Below, piece by piece: positions 1 to 47,819 of a DNA stretch of 64,000 nt (position 1 is its first letter; every line of letters begins with the position of its first letter). The notes beneath the pieces were generated by a model. It saw only the letters and a list, made by a program, of their open reading frames with translations. It was not told where the DNA came from and ran no database searches. The DNA is from an uncultured Oscillospiraceae bacterium (lineage in GTDB: Bacteria; Bacillota; Clostridia; Oscillospirales; Oscillospiraceae), in the NCBI GenBank assembly GCA_947627715.1, contig CANQXK010000006.1, forward strand, positions 17,355-81,354. Reading direction: 5' to 3'. A program made the translations under genes and the position numbers.

Positions 1-876
1 TTTGTAGGTGCCTGAGCCTGTAATGGTTTCTACCCATTGTTTGAACGGCTTACCCATGTTGCCTGTTTCAAAATTATTCGCGCTATTGGCCGCTGTATAT
101 TTTCTGCTATCAAGGGTATCCAGTGCAATCGTGCCGGTGTAATCACCCGAAAGCGTCTCAAATTTGAGATCAGCGTCTTCAATTATTTTACATTCCTCGC
201 TGCCGTTAATCAGTGTAATTGTCGTTTTAATACTTATATGTGTGCCAGTAAACCCAGCTCCCGGCACGGTGATGGTCAGCGCAAGTTCTTCGGCGTTGAT
301 CATCTGCGCCGACGGCAAGGGCGTCTGGCCGATGTTGGGACGCTCAATATAGGTGCCGCCGTAGTAGCCGACCATACGTCCGGCGTCAAGCCTCTTGTCC
401 TTTTCCGGCTTCACTTTGTCGTATGACTCGTTTGTATAGTCAAAGTCCTCCTTCTCCCAATACCACACCGCGTAGACCGCCCCGGTTTTCGCGTCGATCT
501 CCACCACATAGTGGTTATCATGGAGTTGGGATTCGATGGAGCCTCCCGGCACCAGGGAGGCGAGACTGTCGGCCTGCGCCGAGGTCACGGCAAGGAATCT
601 CCCCGTGCCGACGCCGGGATCGGGCTTCTCGTTTACCTCGACGGTGCTGAGAGCGTATAGGTTCGCCCCCGCGCTCTTCAACGCCGTCAGGCGGTTCTGC
701 GCTGCCACGAAGATGCTCCGGGCGCTGTCGTCCAGCTCCGTCAGCTTCAGGGAACGGTAGTAGCCGATCACGTTGGGGACGGCAATGGCCAGCAGGACCC
801 CGATGATTGCCACGACGATCAGGACCTCAGCCAGAGTGAAGCCATGGCTCTTCTTTCTTTTGGCTGATTTGAACAT
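1..876 (-). CDS. Prepilin-type N-terminal cleavage/methylation-domain protein (type IV pilin/pseudopilin-like); C-terminus lies beyond base 1
   Basis: My own reverse-strand translation from the ATG at 874-876 gives MFKSAKRKKSHG/FTLAEVLIVVAIIGVLLAIAVPN... This is a classic G/FTLxE prepilin-peptidase site followed by a hydrophobic helix. The frame stays open for 292 codons to base 1. It is not in the supplied ORF track because there is no stop codon in the window. A GAGG-like RBS lies upstream. Confidence 0.8.
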   Translation of the reverse strand, partial: MFKSAKRKKSHGFTLAEVLIVVAIIGVLLAIAVPNVIGYYRSLKLTELDDSARSIFVAAQNRLTALKSAGANLYALSTVEVNEKPDPGVGTGRFLAVTSAQADSLASLVPGGSIESQLHDNHYVVEIDAKTGAVYAVWYWEKEDFDYTNESYDKVKPEKDKRLDAGRMVGYYGGTYIERPNIGQTPLPSAQMINAEELALTITVPGAGFTGTHISIKTTITLINGSEECKIIEDADLKFETLSGDYTGTIALDTLDSRKYTAANSANNFETGNMGKPFKQWVETITGSGTYK

Positions 877-911
877 ATGGCGGATACCTCACTCGGATCG
901 GCCTCGCCGAC

Positions 912-939
912 TGTTCAATAAGGTACGCTTTTTGTAACA
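912..939. promoter_or_regulatory. Candidate serine-recombinase crossover site A (13-2-13 dyad, central dinucleotide AC)
   Basis: TGTTCAATAAGGT-AC-GCTTTTTGTAACA. The half-sites are imperfect inverted repeats with A-tracts, resembling hix/gix half-sites (TTATCAAAAACC). Confidence 0.45.
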
Positions 940-946
940 GGCCCTA

Positions 947-975
947 TTGAATTTGTTTCCGCCCCGTGATATAAT
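947..975 (+). promoter_or_regulatory. Near-consensus sigma-A promoter inside the segment bracketed by sites A and B
   Basis: TTGAAT (947-952), a 17-nt spacer, then TGnTATAAT (967-975, extended -10). It points rightwards, antisense to the recombinase gene. There is no plus-strand gene for more than 20 kb. Confidence 0.55.
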
Positions 976-976
976 G

Positions 977-1648
977 TTATGTAGCTATTTCCTTTATTAC
1001 TATGTACAAATTCCGGCTTTTCGCCTCTGTTCCAAAAGGTGTACTTTTTGTAACAGAGACTTCTCTGGCCCAACGCAAAAAAGTGTTGTACGAGATCCCC
1101 AGCTCCTTTGCCGCCTGCCGGGAGCCGATGTCGCCGGAGACATAGCGCGCCAGCACATCCGAAAATCCCTGGGGTCTGTTGAGGGGAGGCCGCCCGAACT
1201 GGACGCCCCGCTCCTTTGCCGCCGCGATGCCCTCCGCCTGACGCTGGCGAATGAATTCCCGCTCCGTCTGGGCCACGTAGCTCAAAAGCTGCAACACGAT
1301 GTCCGCGATCAACGTCCCCGTCAGGTCCCGTCCCTGCCGCGTGTCCAGAAGGGGCATATCCAGCACCACCACGGCGGCCTGCTTCTCCTTGGTGATGATC
1401 CGCCACTGCTCTAAAATTTCCTCATAGTTTCGCCCCAGCCGGTCGATGCTCTTGACCACAAGAGTGTCCCCGGCCCTTATTTTTCTCAGGAGCTTCTTGT
1501 AGCCGGGGCGCTCGAAGTCCTTCCCCGACTGCTTGTCCATAACGATGCAATTCTCCGCTACACCAAACTGCCTCATGGCGATGAGCTGCCTGTCCTCGTT
1601 CTGCTCCCGTGTGGACACACGGATATAACCGTACATTTTGCCTTCCAT
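977..1648 (-). CDS. Small serine recombinase (resolvase/DNA-invertase family) with C-terminal HTH
   Basis: MEGKMYGYIRVSTREQNEDRQ... contains the catalytic-Ser motif (YxRVST). The C-terminal HTH reads SRQAAKELGISYNTFLRW. An AAGGAGGAG RBS sits 5 nt upstream of the ATG at 1646-1648. The ORF-track start at 1666 is a TTG inside that RBS. Confidence 0.9.
   Translation of the reverse strand: MEGKMYGYIRVSTREQNEDRQLIAMRQFGVAENCIVMDKQSGKDFERPGYKKLLRKIRAGDTLVVKSIDRLGRNYEEILEQWRIITKEKQAAVVVLDMPLLDTRQGRDLTGTLIADIVLQLLSYVAQTEREFIRQRQAEGIAAAKERGVQFGRPPLNRPQGFSDVLARYVSGDIGSRQAAKELGISYNTFLRWAREVSVTKSTPFGTEAKSRNLYIVIKEIAT
1028..1055. promoter_or_regulatory. Candidate serine-recombinase crossover site B (13-2-13 dyad, central dinucleotide GT)
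   Basis: TGTTCCAAAAGGT-GT-ACTTTTTGTAACA. 11 of 13 positions match between the half-sites. The central GT is the reverse complement of the AC core in site A. Confidence 0.45.
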
Positions 1649-1930: not shown

Positions 1931-4900
1931 TTAGTACTTGAGGTTGGGGGCGAGCCAGCGTTTGAAGATCTCCGCCGACTCGGCGCGGGACGCGCGGCCG
2001 CCGGGAACAAGCTTCTCGCTCCCGCCGTAGCCCTTCACAAGCCCGGTCAGCGCGGCCCAGCGCATGGCGTCCTCCGCCCACGGGGACGTGTCGGCGGCAT
2101 CCGAGAAGGCCAGCACGTAGTCAGCCGGGACCTCCTTCAGTTCGCCGAACTTCTCCTCGTAGCGGTAGAGGATGGTGACCAGCTGCTCCCTGGTGATAAG
2201 GTCCTCCGGCCCGAAAACGGTGTCGGTGTAGCCCCTCACCACGTCCTCGCGCTGCGCCCAGGCGATGGCGTCCGCGTACCAGGTGCCAGGCTCCACGTCC
2301 ACGAAGGTGCTTGCGCCGCTGACTGCGGGGGTATCCATCATGTTGTAGAGCATCTGCGCCACCATGGCACGGGTCAGGCCCGCGTCGGGCAGGAAGATGT
2401 AGTTGCCGTAGCCCTTCATGATGCCGTTCTGGAGGACGAAGTGGACTCCGTCGTGATACCACGCCTTGGGCGAGGCATCCGTGTACTGGTCGATGGGGCA
2501 GGTTGCGTCCTTGGGGCAGTTGGCCGAGAAGATCACCTGCACGTCCACGTCGGAGGCCGGCATATTGAAGCTGTAGGTCCCGTCGCCGTTGTCGGTGACG
2601 GTGAGGACATTCCCCTGGGCGTCGGTGACGACAACGGAGTCAACGGTGCAGTCCGCGTCGGGCGTGACGGTGAGGGTGACCCTGGTTCCGGGGGCCGCCG
2701 TGTCGCGGTCCGCCGTGACGGTTCCGCCGTACTTCAGCTCAGGGACGTTGACCTCATACGCGCCGCCGCTGACGCCGCCGCTGCTGGGCGTGCTGTCCGG
2801 CACCGGCTGTTGAGAGACGCCGAAGGCGTACACGGAGAAGTTCCTGGCGCGGATCACGATGTAGGCCGTGCCCTCGCTTCCCTCGGTCACCTCGATATAG
2901 TAGCACTCCATGGTGGCTCTCGGTCCGTACTCCGGGGTGACGCGCCTCATCTGTTCAACAGTCTCCTTATCGCCCTGCTTGTGCTGGCGGTAGATGAAGA
3001 TGTGATCGTAGGCATCCTCAATGGGGATAAATTCTCCGCTGTCATCCGTAAGGGCTTCGAGCTTGTCAGCCATATCATTGGAAATCGGGAAGCGAAGCTC
3101 AATGAGGCTGGCGGTGGTGGGGATGGCTTCAGGGTCGCTCGTTGTCCCTCCGTCCCAACCTGAGCCGGTACTCGTGTACTCTGTCACCTGTTTTGTGACA
3201 GTCACATCGATCCAGTCGGAGATTTCTTTCGTATTCGATGCTGTCGGACTTTCATCGATCCCGGCTGCTTTATTGATTGCGTCCTTAATTCTACTCGCTT
3301 CATCTGCGGTCATTTCGATGCTCGAATCAACACCCAGTTCTTTTGCGTAGAGCGTAATATCGATCTCCGTCTTTGTAGTTGAGCCGCTGCCAGAATCGGG
3401 TATCGCCGCCTGCTGTTTTTCCGCATTGCTCAACACCCCGTCAAGGCCGCTGACCGTGGGTTCATTGCCATTTGATGAAAGGTTGCTTTCCATATTAGTG
3501 TCTATCGCAACGGTTTCAGCCTTGAACTCAACGGAAGCTGTGGGCGCGTTTACATTCAGCGACCCGGTTGTGCTGCTGACGCCATCGATTACCACTTCCA
3601 CAGTATAGGGACCATACTCAACATCCGTCAAATCTGTTGTCCACTCAGTAACCTTTCCGTCATCGCCGGTGGTGCCGGTGGCAACCACTTCTCCATCTTT
3701 GTCCTTTATGGTCACCGTTGCGCCGCTCACGGGAGCGCCGCTCTCGGAACTCTTGACGGTAATATCCGGCTCGCCCACGTAGGTCCACTTGGGATCTTCA
3801 GAAGGCTTACCCGGTTCATCTTCCTCCCACTCGTAGGCTTCGGTCTCCGCCGTGCCCTTGACGGTCACGTCGCCGGACTTCATGGTGATGTTGCCGTTCT
3901 TGTCCACGCTGAGGGTGGACTCCTTTCCGTCGCCCGCCTTGTCGGTCACGGTGGTGAGGGTATTGCCATTCTTGTCAAGGATGGTCAGGCTCTCGCCGTC
4001 GTTAAGGGTGATGTCGCCGGAGGCCTCGCCAAGGGTGACGGTCCTGCTCACGCTGCCGGTGACAGAGACATTTCCGTCCTTGTCCACGGTGATGGTGCAG
4101 CCACTCTCTCCGCCAACGTAGGTCACGCCGTCCACGGTCAGCTTCTCGCCTTCATCAAGGGAGAAGGACACATTTCCGCCGGACACAGAGGAGCTTGTCA
4201 ATTCCTTAGCTGCATCATCAGTACCATAAGCGCCCTTGACCTCAACGCCGTTGACCTTGGCGCTGCCGTTCTCAGGGATGGTGACAGAGGGGCCGCTGGC
4301 GTCCACGGCAACACTTCCGCTGCCGGTGTTCTCAAAGAGCGCGCCGCCGGCGCCGAGGGCATTGCCTTTTTCAAGTTCGACCTTGCCTTCGGCCAGCATG
4401 GGTCCGTCGGCTGTGAGTTCAACGGTGATTTCATCAGACCCTTCGGCGGGGGTGTAAGTGCCGGACTTGTCAGCGCCGGACTTGTCCTCGAATTTGACGC
4501 TGAGGTTCTCGCCCGCAGGAACGATGACCTTGGCTTTGTTGCCGTCCTCGGTCTCGACCGTCAGGCCGTCCTTGCTCTCCACGGTGAAGTCCCTGGTGTT
4601 CTCCCCGCTCCCGGCGGTGTAGCCAAGGCTGCCGTCTGTGGGAAGCTCAACGCTGCCAGACTGGAGGGACACGTTGCCCTCCCCGTCGGAGTGAAGCGTG
4701 AGTCTGTCGCTTCCGGCGTTCTTGTAGGTCACGTCCTTGCCGCCCTGCTGGACGGAGACGGAGCCGCCGTTGGAGACCTCAAGCTCGGCGTAAGGCTCGG
4801 TTGCGGGTGTATCTTCGCCGCCCTCGGTTCCCTTATAGGCCGTCACGGTGACTGTGTCGGAGGCGGGTTCTTCCTCCACAGGGTTTGTAAACCTGGTTTC

Positions 4901-7900
4901 CTCGAAGAGGATGTCCGCGCCGTCAGAAAGCTCCACAACGCCGTCCTTCAGGTACACGTTGCCCTGAGCGTCCATCCAGAGTTCGAGGCCGCCGTCTTTG
5001 GCGGTGTAGGTCTTGCCTTTGATGGTGACGCTGCCGCCTGCGGGGACGGAGATGTCCGCGCCCGTGCCGCCGTCAAGGGCGGTTCCGGCGGTGACGGTGA
5101 CTTCCTTGCTCTGAATCACCTGGCCGCTGACGGTAAGCTTTGCGCCAGCCTCATCGCTGCCGGTCACGGTCATCTTGCCCTCCGTCAACGTGACCTCGCC
5201 GGTCTCGTGGTTGACGGTGGCCTTTGTGTTGTCGGACGCGGCGGCGTAGTGGCCGATGGAGTCGCCCGCAGGTTCTTCAACCGTGCCCGTCACTTCGCCC
5301 TTGTCCTTGGGCTTTACGTCAAAGGCGGCACCATTATCAAGGTTCATGGCGGTGTTGCTGTCGTTCGTGCCGTTACGGTCTACATAGATGTTCTTTTCAG
5401 GGTCATTAGCGGGATCGGGCACAACAACATATTTCTGGCTGCTCTCGCCAGCCCTGTTGCCGTTGACCTTTTCCATCGCGGGAGGATCAAGCTGATTGTC
5501 CGTCCCGGAAGTGATGGCGGCATTGCCCTCATCGGAGGGGACGAAGTAATCATGCTTATTCTCAGGCGACGTACTCCCGGTCACGGTGACGGTGCCGCCG
5601 TCACGGCCGTCCTCGGCTTCGGTGTTGTCCACACCCTTGACGCCGGCCCTGCCGGCGTTGACTTCCACGTTCTGACCCTTGTAGGTGGTGGTGCCGCTGC
5701 CGTTCTCCACCTTCACGCTGGCGTTGTCAGTGCCAAAAGGCGTGGCCTGGGGCAGGATCACAGAACCCTGCTCCAGAGTGGCGGGGCCATTTTCATCTTC
5801 CTCAGCCAGGGTCAAAACTGTGTTGTCGGAGCCGGTGGTGAGCTTATCGGTACCAGCACCGGCGGGGACAAGAATCTCCGTTTCGGCGTCTCTAACCTCC
5901 ACGGTGCCGCCCGTCAGGGTGGTTTCGGGGGTCGGATTGTCGGAGTCCCCGTCCTTTTTGATGGTCAACTGAAGAGGTCCATCACCGGCGTTGGAGAAGT
6001 GGCCGACGACCTCATCAATCTCCTCGATTTCGTTGCCTTCCTCGTCCTTCTTGACGGTGACCGCCTCGACCTCGCCGTTCTCAACGTTGATCCAGGCCGG
6101 GCCGCCGGTAACTTCGATCTTTTTGCCGTCCTTTTCAACGGTCACGGTCTCGCCGTCCTCAATGTGGACAAGGCCGGCATCGGGATCGACAATAACGGTG
6201 AAATTCTCTCGGCCGGTTACATTGCCATCCTTGTCAACGGACAGTGAGGCTTCTTCCTGGCCTTCCTTCGGCCTGTAGGTCTTGCCATTGACGGTGACTT
6301 CGTTGCCCTCTCCGGGCTTAACCTTAATGCCGCCGTCATCGTCAAGCTCTACCGTAATGTCGTCGCCGCTGGCTACCACGGAGTTGTCGCCGATGTCCGC
6401 GCTGCCGCCGGAGAGGATTTCCACGGAGGCGTTCTCCAAATCGCCCTCGCCCTTGGCGTGGACGGTGATCGTCTTATCGCCGGTGTTCTCCACGGGGGTG
6501 CTGCTGTCGCCGGTCTTGACGTTCAGGCCCTCGCCGGGGTTGCCGCCCGCGGCGGGGTCAAGCTCGGCGGAGCCGTCCGTCAGCGTGGGATAGCCGTTCT
6601 CCGTATTCACGGGGACCTCGATCACCATGTCCTCGTCGGAGGGGTTGGTGTACTCAAGCTCCTTCTTATCGTCTGTGGGATTGCCCTCTTCGTCCAATAC
6701 GGGGACGTCCAGGGTGACAGAGTTTTTGTCACCCTCAGGCTCAGAGCCGGGGACGGTGACGGAGAATGTCTCGCCGTCCTTCTTTTCGACCTTCGTGCCG
6801 TCGGTGGGACTTTGGACCTCAGTGTCGCCCGCAGTAACGGGGGTGTCCGCAGGCAGGGTGACCTCGCCGCCGTGGAGCTTCACGTCTCCCTCCGGGGTGA
6901 CCTCAAGCTCAAGGTCGCCGGAGCCTTCGTTGGTATACGTCTTGGTATCGGGGTCTTTGCCCACGACAACGGAATTGCTGCCGGAATCGCCAGCGGCAGG
7001 CACCACGACCTTGGCGGAACCGTCTCCGTAACCATCATCGGCAGTCATAGGCGCGGTCACGGTGACCTGATCACTGCCGGAATCCGCCGGGTTTTCAAAC
7101 ACAATATCGCCAAACGGGATACTCTCGTTATCGTCCAGCACGATGGAGCCGTCCTTGAGGCTGACGTTTCCGTCCTCATCCACGTGCAGGGTCAGGCCGC
7201 TTTCGCCCTCAGCCGCCGTGTACTCGTCTTCGCCAATCTTGACAGACTTGCCAGCGGGAACCTTCACGTCCGCGCCGCCGTCATCATCGGTCATGGTGAC
7301 GGTGACGTCCTCGCCGGAAACCTCCAAGCCCTTGCCGCTCTCGTCTTCCGCAATGCCCTTGAGGGTGACGGAGGGATTATCTGTTTCGCCCAAATGCGGC
7401 TCAGTCTTCGTCATGTGCAGGCCGCCGTCTTCCAGCGTGACTTCGCCGGTGCCGTTGTCCACGGTGAAGTGGGAATCCGGCTCCGTGACCTCATAATGGC
7501 CGAGGGAACCTTCCTTGAGGTTCTCCTTATCCGACGTTCCCGGATTTGTTTTCTCCTTAATGTCGAAGGCCGCGCCCTTTTCGCCGAGTACGTGCGTCAC
7601 CGCTCCTTCGTCTGCTTCAGCCGGCTTGTCCGTCCAAAGAGTTCCCTGGCCGTCTACTTTTCCGTTATTTCCATCCGGCACCAAGACAAAATTTCCGTCG
7701 CCGGGGCCGTCCTTATTGTCGCTGATCTCGCCCTTGGCAGGATATTTCAGCGTGCCTTTCTCCATATCGGCGGCTCCACCATCTTCTCCCTCCGGGAAGA
7801 TGTATTCGGTGCCGTCCTGAACCTTGACCTTACCTGCGGGTGTCGTGGGAGCAACCTTGACAGACGGGTTCTCGCCGCCCTTTTCCGCAGCAAAGACTTC

Positions 7901-10900
7901 AACGTCCGTGCCTTCCAGCTTCTTCTCGCTATCACCATCTGTGGGGTCTTTGACCACGACGCTGCCCTTCGTTCCGTCCGAACCATCCGGGAAGATCACG
8001 TAACCCGACTCCAGCAGCGGGGGATTGCTCTTCTTTCCACTCTCTTCAGTACCGCTCTGCTTGAGGGTCGCGCCCTCCGCCCCGGCGGTCAGGGTATTGG
8101 GGTTTGCACCGCCATCATCGGTTATGGTGATGGACGAGTTGGGTCCGAGATCAAGACCCTTTTCGGGAATCTCATCGACTGTGACGTTACCGTTCCCGTC
8201 AACGGTGAAGGTAAGTTCACTGTCGCCGTTATTTTTATATGTATGCTCATTGCCATCGGCATCGGTGACGGTCAGGGTCTCGCCCGCGGGGACGGTGACC
8301 TTGGCCTTGCCGTCCTCCTGGACCTCGACCTTGACGGGATCCTTTGTGTCGCCATCAGGATCGGAATTACCGCTGCCAATCTCCACGCTGCCGAAGCCCA
8401 CGGACTCATCGTCGTCCAGGTCCACCGCGCCGGAGGTGATGTCGGGCTTGCCGTCCTCACCAATGACAAATTTGGTATTGCCCTCACCTTCGGGGACGCT
8501 GTACTCGGTCGCAGCTTCGCCCTCGCCGATTTCTACCGCGCCGCCGCTGGGGACGGTAACGGTGGGCTTGCCCTCAGCCTCGGTATCGGAACCGTTGACG
8601 GTGACGTCGCTTCCCTCGCCGCCCTTGTTGGTGACGGGGATATTCTTCTCATTCTCCCCTTCTCCGGCCTTGACGAGAATCGAAGCGTTAGTCTCCTCAT
8701 TTCCGGGGAGGGTCAAGGTGCCGCTGGTCAGAGTATTTCCGTCATCGTTGATCTCAATGACAAGAGGATCATCCCCGGCGTTGGTGTACTCGTCACCGCC
8801 GATTGTTACCTTGCCGTCTTCGGGCACAGTTACCGTGCCGGTTCCCTTTTCCTTATCGGCTCTAACGGTGATGTCTTTGTCGGTGTTGGGGTTGGTGACC
8901 TTTTCGCCGGCCACGTAGACAGAATTTTCGTGCGCTTCGGGGGTCCCGTCCTTCTTGGGCAGGGTGATCTCATCCTCCACCAGCTGGGCGTGGTCGCCTT
9001 TCTCGGCGTCCTTCACGAGGTCGAGCTTTGCGCCGGCCTCGCCAGCCGTATACTTGTTGTCATTGACCGTGACGGTATCGCCAGCGGGGACCTCCACCTG
9101 TCCGGCCACGTCGCCGTCGCCGCCCTTGGTGATCACGGTGTCGCCGGTGTTCCCCGCATCGGTCTTGACCGTGAAGCCGTCAGATTCAGTGCCGGTCACC
9201 TCAACAGTGGCCTCAGTTCCGCCGGGAATCGTGGCCTTTCCGCCGTCCTTAAGCCCGTCAAACGGCTTGTCCAGATCGTAGCCAGTATCTCCGCTGCCCT
9301 CGAACACCACGCCGTCAATGTCAACCGCAGTCTCCGGGTCGTCAGGCGTAACGGTGCCGGTTTTTTCCGCGCTATCAATATTAAAGGTAACAGGGCCTTC
9401 GGGAATGACGGTGTGATCTTCACCGTTGCCGTCTTTGACCTTCACGGAATTATCTTCCATGCCTTCGGGCAGGGCGTGGCTGTTGTCGCCCCGGTCAGGG
9501 TTAAACGTCACGGTTCCGTTTTCAACGGTGATCGTGCCGTCCGTCTCCACAGTGAGCGTGGCTTCAGCCCCGGCGGGCACAGTGTACGTCCGGCCATAGT
9601 AGTCCACAAAGGTCTTGGGGCCGGAGACGTTATTCCAGGTCTGCGCTTCATCCTTGGGAAGGCCCACGACGTTGACTGTGTTGTTGGCGGTCTGGTCATC
9701 TGTAAGGGCGTTCGTTGCCTCATCCACGTCGGTGCACATGGTGGAGCCGACCTGATAGACTACGGCCTTGGCGGTGCCGTCCGGGCCGACTACGACCGTG
9801 GCGGGACCATCAAATGTTTTGGGGCCTCCCTCTACTCCGTTGCCGGAGACTTGCGCACTGCCGCCGTCGGGAATCTCAATGACGGTATTGCCCTCGGTGG
9901 GATAGTCGTCCCTGACAAGCAGGTCCTTACTGCCGGTATTCTCAATCTTGGCATCATTGCCGCCATCACGGGGAAGGGTGACCTTCGCGTCAGAGGCTTC
10001 TTCGCTATCAGGCAGGACGATCTCGCCATCTTCCAGCGTCACGTCGCCGGAGGTGACGGCTTTGGAGCCGTCCGGGCGCAGCTCGACCTCGACCGGCTCT
10101 ACGCCGTTGTTGGAGTACACGTCGTCCCCGGTCTGCATCTTACCGCCAGCGGGGACGGTGACGGTGGCGCCATTTTCAGGCGAATCTGCATCAACGGTGA
10201 GTTGCGTGTCATCGTCCACGTTCTCAACCTTGACGTCCTCTTCGCCGACTTTGACGTGTACATCTTTCTCCGGGCCAACCTTCACGTCGCCGGATTCCAG
10301 CGTATAGACAGTAGGATCGCCTGTAGGATCAACCACAAGTACAGTGGGGCCTTCGGGAATCTCATACTCGCGTCCGTCAATTATTACCTTGCCGCCTGTT
10401 CCTTCGGGCGCGGTTACCTTGATATTACCGTCCTCGCTCTTTTCAACGGTAATATCCGTGCTGCCTGTATTCTCAACGACCTTGCCGTTGACCGTGACGG
10501 CGTTGTTGTGTTCACCGTCTTTCTTGGGCAGAGTGACGCTGCCCTCGGCAAGCTCCACGTGTCCCGCGCCCTCGCCTTCGTCCTTCACAAGGTCCAGCTT
10601 CGTGTTATCGGTCCCCTTGTAGCTGTTGTCGCCGACCTTGGCAGTCTTGCCGCTCTCAACCGTCGCCCGACCCACTTTGCCCGTGCCGTCTTCGCCGTCG
10701 GGAGCGGTCTTGGTCACTTCGGCTTCGCCGGTCACGGTAAGATTCGCATTGTCGCCGTCGGTCTTGAGGGTCTTGCCGGAGGGAACCGTCGCCGTCCCGT
10801 CAACCTCAAGCGCGGAATACGGGTCGTCAAGGGGGTATTCGGGGGCAGAGGGGCTGTTGAAGGTCACGCCGTCGATGGTGACGTTTTGAGCGGGCACACT

Positions 10901-12781
10901 CGGTGTCACCGTGCCCCCAGCCTCAGTCCCGGCCTTGACGGTGGCGTTTCCGTCCACGCTCACGTCATGAGCCGCACCGTTCTTATCGTTGGCCTTAAAG
11001 CTGGCCGTGCCGCTGGGGGTCACGTCCACCGTGCCGGAGGTGACGCTGCTCACGTTGCCGTTGGTGACGCCAACAGTGGCTTCGCCAGTCGCCGTAAAGG
11101 TGTTGCCAGCCGTATCTTTCAGCTTCACGCCGTCCGGGACAGTGGCGGAATCCTGACTAACGCCGTTGTGAGCGATTTCAACCGTCTCGCCATTCTTTGC
11201 CGCCTCAAGCGCCGCGTCAAGCGTCTCATAGTACTTATTAGTCGTTGTGTTCTTCGCAGCGGCTTGTTTCAGGGCGCTGGTAAGAGCAAGTGGCGTATCA
11301 TTTGAAATAGAATTTGGAGGGAATGTTATGGTGGCTATCCCGCTTACAGGGTCAACCGACACCGTTCCTCCCACAAGTCCTACAATTGCTTCTAACTGCC
11401 CCGCATCGAAGAAATATCCTGTATGCGGTGCCAACGTAAGCTTGCCACCTTTTTCAGGATTGACCGTAAACGTTGCTCCACTCCCGGTGATACCCTCTCC
11501 GTCAGGTAAGGCTGTGCAATTTTCCCCGCCTACCAAAGTGATTGTCGGCCACTTCTTAGCGTTTACAGTAACAACAATATTGCCAGTGACGCTCTTGATG
11601 CTGACAGTATTTGTTGCAGCATCATAATAATACTGGCCAAGGCCAAGTAATACTTTGTTTGTGACTGACGTTAAGGTCATGCCGCCCATGGTTACGCTTG
11701 CCACGCCGGTGACAGCGCCGCCTGTCGCGGTCATAACGCCATCCCACTCTTTTAATCTTTGAATAGTTGTATTAGGTATAATTGACACCGACACCGACGA
11801 CTCAGAGGAAGTAACACTCGCCGTATATGTCGGTCGGCTGGAGCTTGTATAGCCAGGTCCTGAAAAGCCGGGAAGGTCGTTCCTTGAAATACAAGTGATA
11901 CCCACTCCCCAAGGATAGAAATAGCCGCTTCCATCTCTTTGAAAGTATTGCGTATCATCGTTCAAGTCGTTCACGACTGCGGCGAGACTTCCCATGCGCG
12001 AGCCTATGCCAGAAGAACTATTGTATGTATACCAAGAACCACTTTCATAGGTGTAGCTGTGCTCAATTAAATTTGTACCACCATTCTTATTGCCAATAAA
12101 GCCATTTCCACCGCCCTTATGGGTACAAGTCACAGAAGCCCAGCAGTTATAAATATAGTTAACCTTACCTTCATTGTGTTCTGTCGTTCCAATAAAAGCC
12201 GCCGCGCCATAACTGCTTGTATAGCCAACCGCGCCACAGTTCAAAAAGGTTGCTCCAACTGCGCTTCCTGCGAAAAGTGATACCAAAGATTGATTTGATG
12301 TTTCATTGACATTCCCGGAAACAATCAAATTTTTTACAGTTCCGCCGTTAATCGTTCCAAAAAGGCCACTCTTATAAATTGAATCTGCTGCATCAGGATC
12401 GCCGCCATTATAAACCCTTGAAACATTGAAATTGTAAATTACATGGCCACAGCCATCAAATGTGCCGCCATAACCTGACGTCTTTTCCCATGTACCAGAT
12501 TCATCACTCTTGTTTGTCTGGCCTATTGGTTGAAATGATCCCACAATTGAAGTCATATCAATATCTCTAGTCAAATAAGCATCAAGCTTGCTTATTTGAC
12601 CGGCCTCTCTCGTTGCATTATTCACCTGTTGCGCAAACGCAAGAAGCTCTGCTGCACTCCCAATCGGCGTGCCGCTTGCCGCTTTCGCTTCCGTCCCGGC
12701 GATGCGCGTCGCGGGCAGTAGTCCTACCACCATGAACACCGCCATCGCAAAGGCCAACAGCTTGTATACCTTTCTCTTCAT
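1931..12781 (-). CDS. Giant (3616 aa) cell-surface protein: signal peptide, GLUG-like N-terminal domain, about 2800 aa of acidic T/G/D/E/V-rich repeats, Ig-like repeat, three C-terminal SLH domains
   Basis: - Signal peptide: MKRKVYKLLAFAMAVFMVVGLLPATRIAGTEAKA.
- Recurrent modules such as V(T/K)VPAGxxVxIxxxxYTxxxxxLxxxVDxxGNVxLxxGxVxL.
- C-terminal SLH motifs: WYHDGVHFVLQNGIMKG, FVDVEPGTWYADAIAWAQREDVVRGY, SPWAEDAMRWAALTGLVKGY. Confidence 0.9.
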   Translation of the reverse strand: MKRKVYKLLAFAMAVFMVVGLLPATRIAGTEAKAASGTPIGSAAELLAFAQQVNNATREAGQISKLDAYLTRDIDMTSIVGSFQPIGQTNKSDESGTWEKTSGYGGTFDGCGHVIYNFNVSRVYNGGDPDAADSIYKSGLFGTINGGTVKNLIVSGNVNETSNQSLVSLFAGSAVGATFLNCGAVGYTSSYGAAAFIGTTEHNEGKVNYIYNCWASVTCTHKGGGNGFIGNKNGGTNLIEHSYTYESGSWYTYNSSSGIGSRMGSLAAVVNDLNDDTQYFQRDGSGYFYPWGVGITCISRNDLPGFSGPGYTSSSRPTYTASVTSSESSVSVSIIPNTTIQRLKEWDGVMTATGGAVTGVASVTMGGMTLTSVTNKVLLGLGQYYYDAATNTVSIKSVTGNIVVTVNAKKWPTITLVGGENCTALPDGEGITGSGATFTVNPEKGGKLTLAPHTGYFFDAGQLEAIVGLVGGTVSVDPVSGIATITFPPNSISNDTPLALTSALKQAAAKNTTTNKYYETLDAALEAAKNGETVEIAHNGVSQDSATVPDGVKLKDTAGNTFTATGEATVGVTNGNVSSVTSGTVDVTPSGTASFKANDKNGAAHDVSVDGNATVKAGTEAGGTVTPSVPAQNVTIDGVTFNSPSAPEYPLDDPYSALEVDGTATVPSGKTLKTDGDNANLTVTGEAEVTKTAPDGEDGTGKVGRATVESGKTAKVGDNSYKGTDNTKLDLVKDEGEGAGHVELAEGSVTLPKKDGEHNNAVTVNGKVVENTGSTDITVEKSEDGNIKVTAPEGTGGKVIIDGREYEIPEGPTVLVVDPTGDPTVYTLESGDVKVGPEKDVHVKVGEEDVKVENVDDDTQLTVDADSPENGATVTVPAGGKMQTGDDVYSNNGVEPVEVELRPDGSKAVTSGDVTLEDGEIVLPDSEEASDAKVTLPRDGGNDAKIENTGSKDLLVRDDYPTEGNTVIEIPDGGSAQVSGNGVEGGPKTFDGPATVVVGPDGTAKAVVYQVGSTMCTDVDEATNALTDDQTANNTVNVVGLPKDEAQTWNNVSGPKTFVDYYGRTYTVPAGAEATLTVETDGTITVENGTVTFNPDRGDNSHALPEGMEDNSVKVKDGNGEDHTVIPEGPVTFNIDSAEKTGTVTPDDPETAVDIDGVVFEGSGDTGYDLDKPFDGLKDGGKATIPGGTEATVEVTGTESDGFTVKTDAGNTGDTVITKGGDGDVAGQVEVPAGDTVTVNDNKYTAGEAGAKLDLVKDAEKGDHAQLVEDEITLPKKDGTPEAHENSVYVAGEKVTNPNTDKDITVRADKEKGTGTVTVPEDGKVTIGGDEYTNAGDDPLVIEINDDGNTLTSGTLTLPGNEETNASILVKAGEGENEKNIPVTNKGGEGSDVTVNGSDTEAEGKPTVTVPSGGAVEIGEGEAATEYSVPEGEGNTKFVIGEDGKPDITSGAVDLDDDESVGFGSVEIGSGNSDPDGDTKDPVKVEVQEDGKAKVTVPAGETLTVTDADGNEHTYKNNGDSELTFTVDGNGNVTVDEIPEKGLDLGPNSSITITDDGGANPNTLTAGAEGATLKQSGTEESGKKSNPPLLESGYVIFPDGSDGTKGSVVVKDPTDGDSEKKLEGTDVEVFAAEKGGENPSVKVAPTTPAGKVKVQDGTEYIFPEGEDGGAADMEKGTLKYPAKGEISDNKDGPGDGNFVLVPDGNNGKVDGQGTLWTDKPAEADEGAVTHVLGEKGAAFDIKEKTNPGTSDKENLKEGSLGHYEVTEPDSHFTVDNGTGEVTLEDGGLHMTKTEPHLGETDNPSVTLKGIAEDESGKGLEVSGEDVTVTMTDDDGGADVKVPAGKSVKIGEDEYTAAEGESGLTLHVDEDGNVSLKDGSIVLDDNESIPFGDIVFENPADSGSDQVTVTAPMTADDGYGDGSAKVVVPAAGDSGSNSVVVGKDPDTKTYTNEGSGDLELEVTPEGDVKLHGGEVTLPADTPVTAGDTEVQSPTDGTKVEKKDGETFSVTVPGSEPEGDKNSVTLDVPVLDEEGNPTDDKKELEYTNPSDEDMVIEVPVNTENGYPTLTDGSAELDPAAGGNPGEGLNVKTGDSSTPVENTGDKTITVHAKGEGDLENASVEILSGGSADIGDNSVVASGDDITVELDDDGGIKVKPGEGNEVTVNGKTYRPKEGQEEASLSVDKDGNVTGRENFTVIVDPDAGLVHIEDGETVTVEKDGKKIEVTGGPAWINVENGEVEAVTVKKDEEGNEIEEIDEVVGHFSNAGDGPLQLTIKKDGDSDNPTPETTLTGGTVEVRDAETEILVPAGAGTDKLTTGSDNTVLTLAEEDENGPATLEQGSVILPQATPFGTDNASVKVENGSGTTTYKGQNVEVNAGRAGVKGVDNTEAEDGRDGGTVTVTGSTSPENKHDYFVPSDEGNAAITSGTDNQLDPPAMEKVNGNRAGESSQKYVVVPDPANDPEKNIYVDRNGTNDSNTAMNLDNGAAFDVKPKDKGEVTGTVEEPAGDSIGHYAAASDNTKATVNHETGEVTLTEGKMTVTGSDEAGAKLTVSGQVIQSKEVTVTAGTALDGGTGADISVPAGGSVTIKGKTYTAKDGGLELWMDAQGNVYLKDGVVELSDGADILFEETRFTNPVEEEPASDTVTVTAYKGTEGGEDTPATEPYAELEVSNGGSVSVQQGGKDVTYKNAGSDRLTLHSDGEGNVSLQSGSVELPTDGSLGYTAGSGENTRDFTVESKDGLTVETEDGNKAKVIVPAGENLSVKFEDKSGADKSGTYTPAEGSDEITVELTADGPMLAEGKVELEKGNALGAGGALFENTGSGSVAVDASGPSVTIPENGSAKVNGVEVKGAYGTDDAAKELTSSSVSGGNVSFSLDEGEKLTVDGVTYVGGESGCTITVDKDGNVSVTGSVSRTVTLGEASGDITLNDGESLTILDKNGNTLTTVTDKAGDGKESTLSVDKNGNITMKSGDVTVKGTAETEAYEWEEDEPGKPSEDPKWTYVGEPDITVKSSESGAPVSGATVTIKDKDGEVVATGTTGDDGKVTEWTTDLTDVEYGPYTVEVVIDGVSSTTGSLNVNAPTASVEFKAETVAIDTNMESNLSSNGNEPTVSGLDGVLSNAEKQQAAIPDSGSGSTTKTEIDITLYAKELGVDSSIEMTADEASRIKDAINKAAGIDESPTASNTKEISDWIDVTVTKQVTEYTSTGSGWDGGTTSDPEAIPTTASLIELRFPISNDMADKLEALTDDSGEFIPIEDAYDHIFIYRQHKQGDKETVEQMRRVTPEYGPRATMECYYIEVTEGSEGTAYIVIRARNFSVYAFGVSQQPVPDSTPSSGGVSGGAYEVNVPELKYGGTVTADRDTAAPGTRVTLTVTPDADCTVDSVVVTDAQGNVLTVTDNGDGTYSFNMPASDVDVQVIFSANCPKDATCPIDQYTDASPKAWYHDGVHFVLQNGIMKGYGNYIFLPDAGLTRAMVAQMLYNMMDTPAVSGASTFVDVEPGTWYADAIAWAQREDVVRGYTDTVFGPEDLITREQLVTILYRYEEKFGELKEVPADYVLAFSDAADTSPWAEDAMRWAALTGLVKGYGGSEKLVPGGRASRAESAEIFKRWLAPNLKY

Positions 12782-13777: not shown

Positions 13778-16700
13778 TCACTTCTCTTCCGGCTCAAGCT
13801 GGCAATAGCGCATGAGGACCGCGGCCATCTCATTGCGCCGGGCATAGCCGCGAGGATCGAACACGCCGCTGTCCCGGCCCTTGATGACGCCGTTCATGTT
13901 GCACCACGCCACCGCCTCAATCGCCCAGTCGGACATCTTGTCAAGGTCGGTGAAGGGCAGGCGGTACATCCAGTCGCCCGTGAAGCCGCCCTGGCCGTAC
14001 TCCTGCTCGTAGCGGTAGAGCATGGCCGCCATCTGCTCGCGGGTGATGGGATCGTCCGGGCCAAACCTGTTGTTGCCGTAGCCGCCCGCGATTTCCTCGC
14101 TGGCCGCCCAGCGGATGGCCTCGGCGTACCACGCCCCCTCGCTGACGTCGGAATAGGTCATGTAATAGTTGACCACCGGGCTGCCGCTCATGTTCCACAG
14201 TACCATGACCATCTGGGCGCGGGTGACCGTGTCTTCGGGGAGGAAGCGGTCAACGCTTATGCCGTGCATCAGGTCATGGGCGAGGACATAATCGGTATAC
14301 TCATGGTACCAGGCGTTCACATCGAGGTCCGCAAACTTCCGGCCCGGACAGTTCTCGCCGCCGAGGCACTTGAAGACGGCCTTCACGGTGACGCCGCCAT
14401 AGGGCATCTTGAAGGTGTAGGTGCCGTCGCCGTTGTCGGTGAGGGCGACTTCCTTGCCGTCCTTGTCGGTGACGGTGAGTTCGCCCAGGGCGTAGCCCTC
14501 CTCCGGCGTTACGGTGAGGGTGACGGTGGAGCCGCGAAGGGCGTTGCGGTGATTGACCGTCACGCTGCCGTTCTCCACGCGCTCCGGGAGCTTCACGGTG
14601 TAGTAGACGCCGGTGCTCTGGGTCCAGGTCAGCACATATGTGGAGTAGAACTTCGCGTGGATCTCGATGGCCGTGCCGTCCCGGATGACCCTCAGATACT
14701 CGCCGTCCCTGTTGGCGGACGTGGTGATGGTCTGCATATCCGCACTACCGTCACCGTCCGTATCGTGGAAGCGGTAGACGGTGTAGCTGGACTTGCCCTG
14801 TATCTCCGCGGGCAGGTGGATCACGGTGGTGATGAGCTGTTTGGAGTCGTGAATCTCCGTGGTTCCGTCACTACTACTACCCGTCACCGTCTTTGTCAGC
14901 TCCAGATCGACCACCAGGCCGATGCGGTCCTCCGGCACGGGAACCTGCTCCTCCTGGGTGGAATTAAGCTCCGTGCCCTTGACGGTCATCTTGAACTCCA
15001 CAGAGCCGCCATTCTTGACTGTCTCTTCATCGTCAGTGGTGTATATCCCCTCGTCGGCGGTGGCGCTGGGAGTTTCCACGATTTCCTCCATGTCCACCAC
15101 GGCGGTGACGTCGGCCTCCACCACGGTGTTCAGCGCCCCGTCGGGCAGGATGTAGTCCCCGGTAAGGTTATCCTTTTCCACGTCCACCAGGAAGGTCTTG
15201 ACCACGGTGGAGCTTCCGTTAAAATAGCGGACCTCCAGGTTGTAGATGCCGGGCACAAGGTTTTTAAACGAGAAATTACCGTCGGCGTCGGTGATCGCCT
15301 CGCCAGCCTCGTTATCGCCCTGCTTCAGGGTCACTGTCGCGCCCAGCAGCGACTTGGGTTCGTTGCCCTCCACCTCCTGCTTCACGGTGCCGCCGACCGT
15401 GCGGGTCTCCTTCACGTCCAGCCACTCGGCCTTGAAGGTCACGTCGGAAGCCGGCATGGGGAACTCCTCGTTGGGCCGGTACGTGATGCCGCCGAAGCTC
15501 CATCCCTGGAAGAGGTAACCGTCGCGGGTCAGGCCCGCGGGGAGGATCACCATCTGGCCCTCAAGGAGGTTCTCCATGGCCTCAGGGGCCGCGCCGCCCT
15601 CATAACCGGCGTCGAAGGTGACCTTGTAGGTCTTGACGCTGGCGAGGTTGTTGGTGAGGACCAGCTCTCCCACCTTGTGGAACGCGCCGTCGGAGGTGGC
15701 GGAGTGGCGGAAGTTCGTGTTGCCGATTGCCACCCAGACCTCGTATGTTCCGGCATCGGTGGGCGTTACCTCCTCGCCGTTCTTCTTGTAGACGATCGTT
15801 GTATCAAGCTCCGACACGACCGCCGTTCCCGGATCGGGATACTGGTGGTCGGTGCCCTCGTCCTTATCCGGCGTTGTGGACACCACGCCCCAGACGGGGG
15901 TCAGCTTAACCTCGGTGGGGTGACTTTCATCAGTGAGATCCCACACGTTATTGCTCACGGTGAAGGTCACCGGCGCGGGGACGATGCTCACGGTCGCCGT
16001 GGGGTTCTTCACAGTGTAGTTCCCGGCGTTCTGGCCGTAGAGGCCCGCCGTCACGGTGTACTCCTTCACATCCGAGTCATCAGTGGCGGCGAAGGCCACC
16101 AGGTACGCACCGGAGTAGCTTTCGGGATTATCAATATTGAAATCGGAAGGCAGCCCCTGCCCCGGAGGCAGCTGTTTGTTATCGTTCTCGAAGGGATCCT
16201 GCACCCGAATGTCGGGGTGCATGGGGTGGGCGTGGTAGACGTAGCTCAGGTGGGTCCAGATCACCGTGACCTCGTAGGGCTTTATCTCGATCGTGCCGAT
16301 TTTCAACTCGCGGGTGGCGGTTTCCTGGTCGCTAAAGGCGTAGTTGTAGATGCCGTCAGCCGTGGGTGTGAAGGTCACGATGATGTCATACGTCCCGGCG
16401 TTGCGCACCTCGTTAACATCGGTGCTACCCTTGCGGTAGGTCACCTTGTAGCCGTTGCTGGCGGCGGCGTTGATGGCGACCGGCTCGCCCGTAGTCTGGC
16501 TCACGTTGGCCTTGTGGTTATAGCTGTCGTAGGTCATGGTGAGGGCGAAATCCGTGCCGCTGCCGGTGAGGGTGTAGCCGCCCAGGTTGGGATCGTCGTT
16601 GGTCTCGCCCCTTGTGGACCAGTCAACCTTGGCCTCCGCGCCGATGGTAAAGCTCACCGTGGCAGGGGCAATGGTGTATTCCTGAGAGTCGTCTGTAAGC

Positions 16701-47696: not shown

Positions 47697-47750
47697 AGCT
47701 CCAAAAGAAAACGCACCAGTCCGCGGACTGGTGCGTTTTCTTTTGGAGCT
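47697..47750 (-). terminator. 26-bp perfect hairpin directly 3' of tRNA-Thr; its stem includes the last 7 nt of the tRNA
   Basis: AGCTCCAAAAGAAAACGCACCAGTCC-GC-GGACTGGTGCGTTTTCTTTTGGAGCT (47697-47722 pairs with 47725-47750). Confidence 0.6.
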
Positions 47751-47819
47751 GGATGCGAGATTCGAACTCGCGACCTCATGATTACGAATCAGGCGCTCTA
47801 CCGGCTGAGCTAATCCAGC
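47744..47819 (-). tRNA. tRNA-Thr: tRNA-Thr (anticodon CGU)
   Basis: The reverse strand reads GCTGGAT TA GCTC AGCCGGTA GAGC G CCTGA TTCGTAA TCATG AGGTC GCGAG TTCGAAT CTCGC ATCCAGC T CCA. It is 76 nt and forms a cloverleaf with one C-U mismatch in the anticodon stem. The CCA end is encoded. Confidence 0.85.

Follow-up and report, generated by a model that had tools for sequence, protein, structure and literature searches.

The stretch of DNA analysed here, 64,000 nucleotides of contig CANQXK010000006.1 from an uncultured Oscillospiraceae bacterium (called the window below and always meant at its full length), contains near its start a region, bases 912–1055, that we consider to be a site-specific invertible promoter element gating the gene for a giant pilin-like protein. 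We put the probability of this reading at about 85 %. The region overlaps the 3′ end of a small serine recombinase gene (977–1648, minus strand), and the pilin-like gene starts beyond it, with an ATG at base 876 on the same strand. An invertible promoter between these two genes had been proposed in a preliminary description made from the sequence, and the proposal is supported by the occurrence of both orientations at orthologous loci, with the breakpoints at the cores of the two crossover sites.

Two 28 bp dyads with AC/GT cores, 116 bp apart start to start, are found exactly where they had been described. The distal site (912–939) consists of an outer half (912–924), a core (925–926) and an inner half (927–939), and reads TGTTCAATAAGGT-AC-GCTTTTTGTAACA, the core being AC on the plus strand and GT in the sense of the recombinase gene. 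The proximal site (1028–1055) reads TGTTCCAAAAGGT-GT-ACTTTTTGTAACA, with its inner half at 1028–1040, its core (AC in the recombinase sense) at 1041–1042 and its outer half at 1043–1055. The two cores are reverse complements of one another, which places the sites in inverted orientation; neither the sites nor the unit that they delimit are assigned to a strand. A repeat finder grouped them as one 30 nt family with 83 % identity. The proximal site is a good dyad, self-complementary at 22 of 28 positions, and the distal site is a weaker one (16/28). A degenerate 28 nt pattern matched these two sites only in the 64 kb, where 100 shuffles gave an expectation of 0.00, and no further convincing paired occurrence of the 12 nt half-site TGTTACAAAAAG was found within the window. 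The invertible unit, taken from core to core (925–1042) with its 116 bp spacing, is made up of the two inner half-sites and 88 bp of inner DNA (940–1027).

A near-perfect promoter had been reported between the sites, and TTGAAT-17-TATAAT was indeed found at 947–975 on the plus strand and is kept in the orthologues. It comprises a −35 element (TTGAAT, 947–952), a 17 nt spacer, a TG at 967–968 and a −10 element (TATAAT, 970–975). This was the sole promoter-like match in bases 600–2000, where shuffled sequences gave 0.7 matches, and the count alone is not significant; the call is credible because the element is conserved across the orthologues, not because of the number of matches. When the segments are put in one orientation, the −35, TG and −10 elements are retained in all of the orthologues, with TTGAAT, TTGAAA or TTGCAA at −35 and TATAAT, TACAAT, TAAAAT or TATCAT at −10. 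In the orientation found in the window, referred to as OFF, the promoter is directed into the recombinase gene, antisense to it, and not towards the pilin-like gene. As had been stated, the plus strand downstream of it carries no gene over more than 20 kb.

Flipping the segment in silico gives a leader of approximately 109 nt, calculated from the coordinates and close to the 110 nt first estimated, and in all of the orthologues the promoter would then lie approximately 105–110 nt before a conserved ribosome binding site and ATG. The fixed part of this leader (877–911, minus strand) includes, as read from the sequence, a Shine-Dalgarno-like GAGGT about 9 nt before the ATG; both the GAGGT and the context of the ATG are conserved in all orthologues. 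A terminator scan detected no terminator-like site between the recombinase and pilin-like genes. At gathering thresholds, Rfam returned no riboswitch or leader family for the window, L001 or L004 (the sole match was a tRNA at 47747–47819), and the leader of L001, an orthologous locus in the opposite (ON) state, folds no better than shuffled sequences (z −1.5). A cyclic-di-GMP riboswitch like those preceding pilA1 and flgB in Clostridioides difficile was considered as a further control element and dropped, as there was no Rfam match and the leader showed no unusual structure.

The segment and its flanking genes at orthologous loci

The DNA of orthologous loci in related metagenome-assembled genomes and contigs was compared with the window, OFF segments being flipped in silico for alignment. 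The OFF arrangement, with the promoter antisense to the recombinase gene, was found in the window, L002, L003, L085–L094 and L097. L001, L096 and L098 (from three samples) and L004 hold the reverse complement of the segment, inner half-sites included, with the promoter directed at the pilin-like gene (ON). L095 is also ON; its orientation was assigned via the colinear alignment and the type of recombinase tail, and a TTGAAT-17-TGnTAAAAT element is visible there. The comparison with related genomes that had been recommended as a check has in this way yielded flipped versions (L001/L096/L098, L004 and L095). The recombinases encoded at L001, L004 and L095 are P0123, P0006 and P0005, respectively.

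In the ON-state orthologues, the distal site keeps its outer half in position and its inner half has moved with the segment, putting the breakpoints at the cores. Read in the recombinase sense, every locus has the order outer half, AC, inner half, then inner half, GT, outer half. Although the inner sequence diverges, all of the orthologous lineages keep a core-to-core spacing of exactly 116 bp. After the in silico flip of the OFF segments, all of the loci align colinearly. For the window and L001 (OFF/ON), the flanks are 92.6 % and 76.0 % identical, and the segment is 61.4 % identical on the same strand and 82.5 % identical when reverse-complemented. The corresponding values for the window and L004 (OFF/ON) are 77.3 % and 75.3 % for the flanks and 57.0 % and 76.3 % for the segment. 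For the window and L085 (OFF/OFF), with flanks of 81.6 % and 88.0 % identity, it is the same strand that matches (87.7 %, and 53.5 % when reverse-complemented). The ON allele P0123 shares 90 % identity and a 90 % cluster with the window protein and nests by similarity among the OFF alleles P0002 (88 %), P0003 (87 %) and P0004 (82 %), and the alleles P0005 and P0006 (both 80 % identical to the window protein) are also ON; there must therefore have been at least two independent flips. Both orientations occur naturally between orthologous lineages, with breakpoints at the repeats.

The proximal site lies within the coding sequence of the recombinase, which is 223 aa long and has its last 20 codons within the invertible unit. 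The outer half of this site (GTTACAAAAAGT) encodes V-T-K-S and its core falls in the codon for Thr203, which means that the putative target of the recombinase is embedded in its own last codons, directly after the predicted recognition helix. In silico inversion of 925–1042 converts the tail ...VSVTKSTPFGTEAKSRNLYIVIKEIAT (223 aa) to ...VSVTKSTLFVTGPIEFVSAP (216 aa). The alternative stop codons (967–979) are a TAA at 977–979 on the minus strand in the window state and a TGA at 967–969 on the plus strand after inversion, and they bracket the −10 element. Each flip exchanges the last 13 or 20 residues of the recombinase, beyond the DNA-binding helix.

Across all of the orthologues, in silico inversion and translation gave 223 or 224 aa in one state and 216 or 217 aa in the other. 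A site in the C-terminal tail and a short tail in either orientation had been anticipated, and both predicted isoforms (...KSTPFGTEAKSRNLYIVIKEIAT and ...KSTLFVTAPIEFISAP) occur in databases. The 216 aa tail type was found in P0123, which ends ...KSTLFVTAPIEFISAP, and in P0124, P0122 and P0006; the exact window protein is P0001 in public data. A homology search with the recombinase recovered a family of more than 8000 proteins. The closest relatives all keep V-[TAS]-K-S-T and then split into the two tail types, and in 12 aligned relatives K201-S202-T203 is invariant, with the tails diverging after it.

The pilin-like gene is represented in the window by its 5′ part (1–876, minus strand), the first 292 codons of a reading frame that runs off the window start. 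Its product begins with the type IV prepilin signal MFKSAKRKKSHG-FTLAEV... and matches PF07963 (N_methyl, E 8.5e-9); in the orthologues TIGR02532 is also above its cut-off. A short basic leader, Gly−1, a hydrophobic helix and Glu+5 are all present, making this a class III signal peptide (MFKSAKRKKSHG-FTLAEVLIVVAIIGVLLAIAVPNV). The earlier identification of a pilin-like target holds with regard to the prepilin motif, but what lies in the window is the 5′ end of a giant gene and not a gene for a small pilin. The products in the orthologues are 1238, 1242, 1533, 1704 and 1758 aa long, each with a canonical class III signal peptide (GFTLAE). The 292 residues in the window are 61 % and 52 % identical to the N-termini of the 1533 aa protein of L001 and the 1758 aa protein of L004, respectively, and on L093, a contig of the same strain, the product was called as 1238 aa. 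Beyond N_methyl, the orthologues show just weak Glug and Peptidase_M26_N matches. From its sequence, the protein is best described as a giant modular type-IV-pilin-like protein, and it is probably an adhesin.

In all of the orthologues, a very large gene begins approximately 100 nt past the distal site, after the recombinase gene and the switch. The module of recombinase, switch and giant N_methyl gene is conserved in differing genomic neighbourhoods, and the upstream neighbours vary by genome, including sugar ABC transporter genes and genes for MotA/ExbB, a UvrA-like protein and a glycosyltransferase.

Two details of individual contigs were also recorded. In L096 (1395–1412; protein P0122), the inner half-site beside the proximal core is ACACCTTTTGTAACA, a mosaic of the two inner half-sites of the L001-type strain (ACACTTTTTGTAACA and ACACCTTTTGGAACA), and it gives a recombinase tail ...KSTPFVTAPIEF. 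This may be a point mutation, a sequencing error (1.9× coverage, single contig) or a trace of half-site exchange. L091 and L092, from different samples, both end 112 nt after the recombinase stop codon, just inside the pilin-like gene. An assembly break due to mixed orientation is disfavoured, as the break is approximately 45 nt past the distal site, and strain variation where the pilin-like gene begins is a likelier cause of a break in the assembly graph.

The recombinase and its wider family

The recombinase matches PF00239 (Resolvase, E 7e-31) over residues 6–149 and has a weak helix-turn-helix match at residues 167–195. The gene is intact, and the product includes the motifs YGYIRVST (with Ser12) and SIDRLGRN followed by the C-terminal helix-turn-helix. 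With the catalytic domain, the serine, the DRLGR motif and the helix-turn-helix all present, it belongs to the small serine recombinase (resolvase/invertase) superfamily. The closest solved relatives are Sin/Bin3 (E 1e-30), followed by gamma-delta/Tn3 (approximately 1e-20) and a Gin-type invertase (1e-17). The crossover sites had been called hix/gix-like. This is appropriate for their architecture of two 13 bp half-sites and a 2 bp core, but not for the recombinase, which to judge from these matches is nearer to Sin/Bin3 and gamma-delta/Tn3 and falls outside the Hin/Gin/Cin/Pin subfamily. Nor is it a member of the Mpi family, scoring 56.6 bits with model NF009949, for which the cut-off is 272.

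The wider family was examined using 72 usable relatives that are 58–75 % identical and come from many Clostridia (loci L005–L084). An inverted-repeat pair (16 nt, no more than two mismatches) with a separation of 98–214 nt was found at the 3′ end of the recombinase gene in 25 of the 72, compared with 4 of 240 control windows. In relatives with clear dyads, the cores are again reverse complements (AC/GT or AG/CT). Several of the segments hold strong promoter-like motifs, mostly antisense to the recombinase gene in the assembled state and in some cases sense. The genes downstream are diverse and encode ResIII/HA helicases, Eco57I- and MmeI-type methylases, BspA-LRR and Flg_new surface proteins, response regulators, a non-ribosomal peptide synthetase and Zn-ribbon proteins.

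The spacings in distant relatives (L010, L017, L018, L026, L031, L039, L044, L045, L053, L068, L072, L074 and L075) were 103, 107, 116, 126–128, 134–137, 149 and 153 bp, which hints at a periodicity of approximately 10.5–11 bp. This is a hint only, as the Rayleigh p of approximately 0.004 comes with a broad peak (9–12 bp), n=14 and loci that are not independent.

One of the relatives provides an inversion within a single allele. The proteins P0157 (24 contigs) and P0159 (11 contigs) resemble the window protein at 71 % identity; their 206 aa cores are 100 % identical and their tails differ. The loci L103 and L106 are identical over flanks of 86 nt and 194 nt, and the 100 nt between the flanks are exact reverse complements. 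This stretch is bounded by ...CCAAAGC-AC-ACCTTATGTTCCG and CGGAACATAAGGT-GT-GCTTTTTG..., and it carries TTGCGA-17-TGcTATACT, which in L106 faces a gene for an Eco57I-type protein. This inversion in one and the same allele of a 71 % identical relative is direct proof of activity. In the region compared (positions 881–1260; P0158 and P0166 are a further pair), on gut-metagenome contigs from ENA and Logan, the inverted stretch precedes an Eco57I-type methylase/ResIII helicase pair, and the locus is a probable phase-variable restriction-modification or defence system.

The proposed switch and alternative explanations

The arrangement is that of an inverton, with an inverted pair of sites around a short segment and a candidate promoter that faces a gene in one orientation only. 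The recombinase encoded at 977–1648 most likely binds the two 28 bp dyads as dimers and would cut the 2 bp cores at 925–926 and 1041–1042, leading to inversion of the 116 bp unit and of the single strong sigma-70-type promoter that it carries. We infer that this recombinase itself flips the segment and that the promoter is active. With the unit in the OFF state, transcription would begin at approximately base 982, where the recombinase gene has its stop codon, and the RNA would be antisense to the recombinase mRNA over its full length. Inversion to the ON state would direct the promoter at the giant type-IV-pilin-like gene, to be transcribed via the leader of approximately 109 nt, and the predicted junctions are ...AAAAAGT-AC-GCTTTTTGTAACAGGCCC... 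beside the recombinase gene and sequence derived from ...GGAACAGAGG... beside the pilin-like gene. Antisense transcription may lower expression of the recombinase in the OFF state and bias the switch towards OFF, which would agree with OFF having been assembled more often than ON. The 116 bp loop may need bending by an architectural protein such as HU, as in the case of Sin and the beta recombinase, and the invariant 116 bp may reflect helical phasing.

Several observations weigh against a working switch of this kind. For the synapse of a serine recombinase, a loop of 116 bp is very short, and neither an accessory site nor an enhancer was found at the switch. The distal site is the poorest dyad (16/28), with a T interrupting the A-tract of its outer half-site, and no genes for type IV pilus assembly (PilB/C/D-like) were found within the window. 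No mixed orientation within one allele or strain was seen at the window locus in consensus contigs or in the protein collection: the approximately seven contigs of the window's allele group (P0001, P0121, P0125) and the approximately 20 of the P0002 group are all OFF, and all three from the P0123 group are ON. Assemblies that carry the window's allele, among them ERZ27249059, ERZ27249352, ERZ27249546 and ERZ27249610, are of rabbit-gut metagenomes. By exact look-up, a collection of 15 billion proteins contained none of nine predicted opposite-state isoforms (for the window allele, L001, L004, L085, L093, L095, P0125, P0126 and P0127). Consensus assemblies give the majority state and hide minority orientations, which makes the single-orientation result a weak one that would also fit lineage-locked states. 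The degenerate promoter pattern CCCTATTGAAWTTRTWTCCGCSCCRTGATAYAAT had 0 matches in JGI metagenome contigs, so that no extra orthologues came from there, and a protein search with the last 75 residues of the predicted ON isoform gave 13 candidates, none of which scored, the word index being unsuited to such short queries.

A single orientation per allele group, with no opposite isoform of the same allele on record, is also what would be seen if the inversion were a fossil or locked in each lineage, that is if flips occurred in the past and the strain in the window no longer switches appreciably, leaving the pilin-like gene promoterless or constitutively low. The weak dyad at the distal site points the same way. 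The A-tract of the distal outer half-site is interrupted by a T (AATAAGG or CATAAAG) in three OFF lineages (window/L093, L085 and L097) and uninterrupted (CAAAAAG or CAAAAGG) in three ON lineages (L001, L004 and L095), a comparison that is small and phylogenetically confounded. The interrupted form (AATAAGG) was considered as a mark of locked-OFF lineages and rejected, as the relative with a demonstrated flip in one and the same allele has half-sites with interrupted A-tracts (ACATAAGGT). A locked state is also at odds with the intact recombinase gene and its catalytic motifs and with the conservation of the sites, the AC/GT cores and the 116 bp spacing across lineages of 80–99 % identity, and a consensus assembly would report the majority state alone in any case. 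We regard it as unlikely, and the strain in the window probably still switches at phase-variation frequency. A different role for a functional switch would be to regulate chiefly the recombinase itself, via antisense transcription and two C-terminal isoforms, any effect on the pilin-like gene being incidental. In the window orientation the promoter would indeed yield RNA antisense to the entire recombinase gene from its stop codon, and the two tail lengths (223/224 and 216/217 aa) that inversion swaps are conserved. However, the tails come after the recognition helix, and their sequence follows from the promoter and site DNA with which they overlap; the ON promoter is correctly placed before the conserved ribosome binding site and ATG in all orthologues, and in relatives the cassette precedes very different genes, as expected of a portable expression switch. 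Self-regulation as the main function seems quite improbable.

That the nearest solved relatives of the recombinase (Sin/Bin3, gamma-delta and Tn3) are resolvases, and that the two sites can also be read on one strand as a direct repeat (83 %), raises the possibility of res or dimer-resolution sites of a transposon or plasmid resolvase, which would give deletion or resolution. This is largely refuted. The asymmetric AC/GT cores put the sites in inverted orientation and the natural variants differ by inversion, not deletion. Instead of directly repeated composite sites there are just two single dyads, lacking subsites II or III and with no further copies in the 64 kb, and the neighbourhood has no transposon ends, the module being found in different chromosomal contexts. 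It is equally hard to credit that the dyads are operators of another DNA-binding protein and the differences in orientation artefacts of assembly, although palindromic sites near promoters are typical of operators. The 116 bp unit is shorter than typical Illumina reads, so its orientation should be read directly, and independent assemblies of three samples gave the ON state, with more than 20 contigs showing the OFF state. The breakpoints, moreover, coincide with the cores, and the outer half of the proximal site is embedded in recombinase codons that are conserved family-wide.

An invertible promoter gating the giant pilin-like gene is the reading that we prefer. It would have three modestly unusual features, namely a crossover site in the coding end of the recombinase gene that gives two isoforms, a very short and fixed unit of 116 bp, and a promoter that is antisense in the OFF state. 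We suggest, tentatively and as less than an even chance, that it may belong to an undescribed and widespread class of portable phase-variation cassettes in gut Clostridia. These would combine a Sin-like recombinase that has a site in its own K/Q-S-T codons with a promoter segment of approximately 100–150 bp, possibly helically phased, no Fis-type enhancer and antisense feedback in the OFF state, and would have been recruited before giant pilin-like adhesins, BspA-LRR surface proteins, restriction-modification/helicase defence genes and regulators.

Comparison with known systems and the surrounding genes

The candidate switch is of a well-known kind, functionally a Hin-like or Mpi-like promoter inversion but by sequence in neither family. 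Hin/hix of Salmonella and Gin/Cin/Pin have in common with it a small serine recombinase with a C-terminal helix-turn-helix and two inverted dyad sites with a 2 bp core, and in the case of Hin also an invertible segment with a promoter that turns a surface-structure gene on or off. The A-tract half-sites found here are ones that we take to resemble Hin/Gin half-sites. The Hin and Gin segments are approximately 1 kb or more, compared with 116 bp, and here the recombinase gene is outside the segment save for its last codons. To our knowledge, Firmicutes are without Fis; because of this and because no enhancer was found, with just 88 bp between the sites, control must differ from that of Hin/Gin. 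Mpi, which acts on the polysaccharide promoters of Bacteroides fragilis, is likewise a serine recombinase that inverts short promoter segments governing surface structures in a gut commensal. However, Mpi acts globally on many distant promoters and at a different site sequence, whereas here there is a single adjacent pair, with no other full site in the 64 kb window, and the recombinase is below the Mpi cut-off. Sin (Tn552 Bin3) and the beta recombinase of Gram-positive plasmids, the nearest solved relatives, are from Firmicutes. An architectural protein of the HU type assists both, and beta is able to catalyse inversion when its sites are inversely oriented. A reaction that does without Fis and takes place on a tightly bent loop could plausibly be modelled on them, but they are resolution systems with composite res/six sites (site I plus accessory sites), in contrast to the single dyads and natural inversion products seen here.

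Short inverted-repeat promoter switches upstream of surface or motility genes in Clostridia are known from C. difficile (flgB, cwpV and cmrRST) and from gut inverton catalogues. The C. difficile switches use the tyrosine recombinase RecV, as described for the flg switch (PMC5386303), and not a serine recombinase. Invertons have been catalogued in the Clostridia-like Firmicutes_A, where Clostridia-rich groups are tied to tyrosine-type recombinases (PMC11892184). A search of the available literature found no description of this serine recombinase family or of a site in its own 3′ end, although an earlier listing in the 2019 inverton catalogue (Jiang et al.) is possible. The target shares a class III signal peptide (G-FTLAE) and a large non-pilin part with modular type IV pilins such as PilB and PilC of Streptococcus sanguinis and the IPR012902-GLUG/M26 architecture. 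Pilin-plus-M26-family modules are among the modular pilin architectures described, the most domain-rich of which has 860 residues (Raynaud et al., PMC8179133). The orthologues of the target are larger than this, at 1238–1758 aa, and here there is no pilus machinery nearby. Piv of Moraxella also governs pilin expression by DNA inversion, but is a DEDD-type enzyme that inverts pilin coding segments, whereas here a promoter and a serine recombinase are involved.

Promoter inversion is a classic bet-hedging device, and most of what is known of its mechanism comes from Proteobacteria (Hin, Fim), Bacteroides (Mpi, tyrosine invertases) and C. difficile (RecV). The locus described here provides a clean, sequence-defined example from uncultured, probably Oscillospiraceae-like, gut Clostridia, consisting of a compact module of three parts (recombinase, 116 bp switch and target) that would gate a giant pilin-like and probably adhesive surface protein. 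The same recombinase family appears to be attached to many other phase-variable candidates in human and animal gut metagenomes, including surface proteins, restriction-modification/helicase genes and regulators. The site rule (a 13 bp half-site, an AC or GT core and K/Q-S-T codons at the 3′ end of the recombinase gene) could allow invertons to be annotated straight from genome sequences. Assemblies of these organisms would show an arbitrary majority state of the switch, and annotation of the recombinase would have two legitimate C-termini. If activity is confirmed, the very short loop with no obvious accessory site would make members of this family potentially useful, as minimal serine invertases, in synthetic biology or for work on mechanism.

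Two giant SLH-anchored surface proteins of 3616 and 3318 aa are encoded directly upstream of the recombinase gene (1931–12781 and 13778–23734, both minus strand), and contain SLH, Glug, YDG, Flg_new, Big_3_5 and CarboxypepD_reg domains. Two neighbouring giant adhesin genes had been part of the preliminary description. They are present in the window, but are common to the window-like strains only (L002, L003, L093 and L094) and absent at the other orthologous loci, and for that reason are not part of the conserved module. An imperfect hairpin at 1742–1782, with T-runs after it on the minus strand, resembles a terminator for the first of these genes, but was not reported by the terminator scan.

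At the far end of the window are genes for a response-regulator/HD-GYP-like/GGDEF protein (61685–63814, minus strand) and a hybrid histidine kinase (58729–61329, minus strand). Genes for cyclic-di-GMP signalling are present, yet Rfam found no cyclic-di-GMP riboswitch anywhere in the window. A large serine recombinase of 614 aa with Resolvase, Recombinase and Zn_ribbon_recom domains (29875–31719, minus strand) adjoins an IS3-type transposase (32110–33258, plus strand; rve and HTH_Tnp_1), and this pair (29875–33258) is probably a separate integrated or mobile element that is unrelated to the switch.

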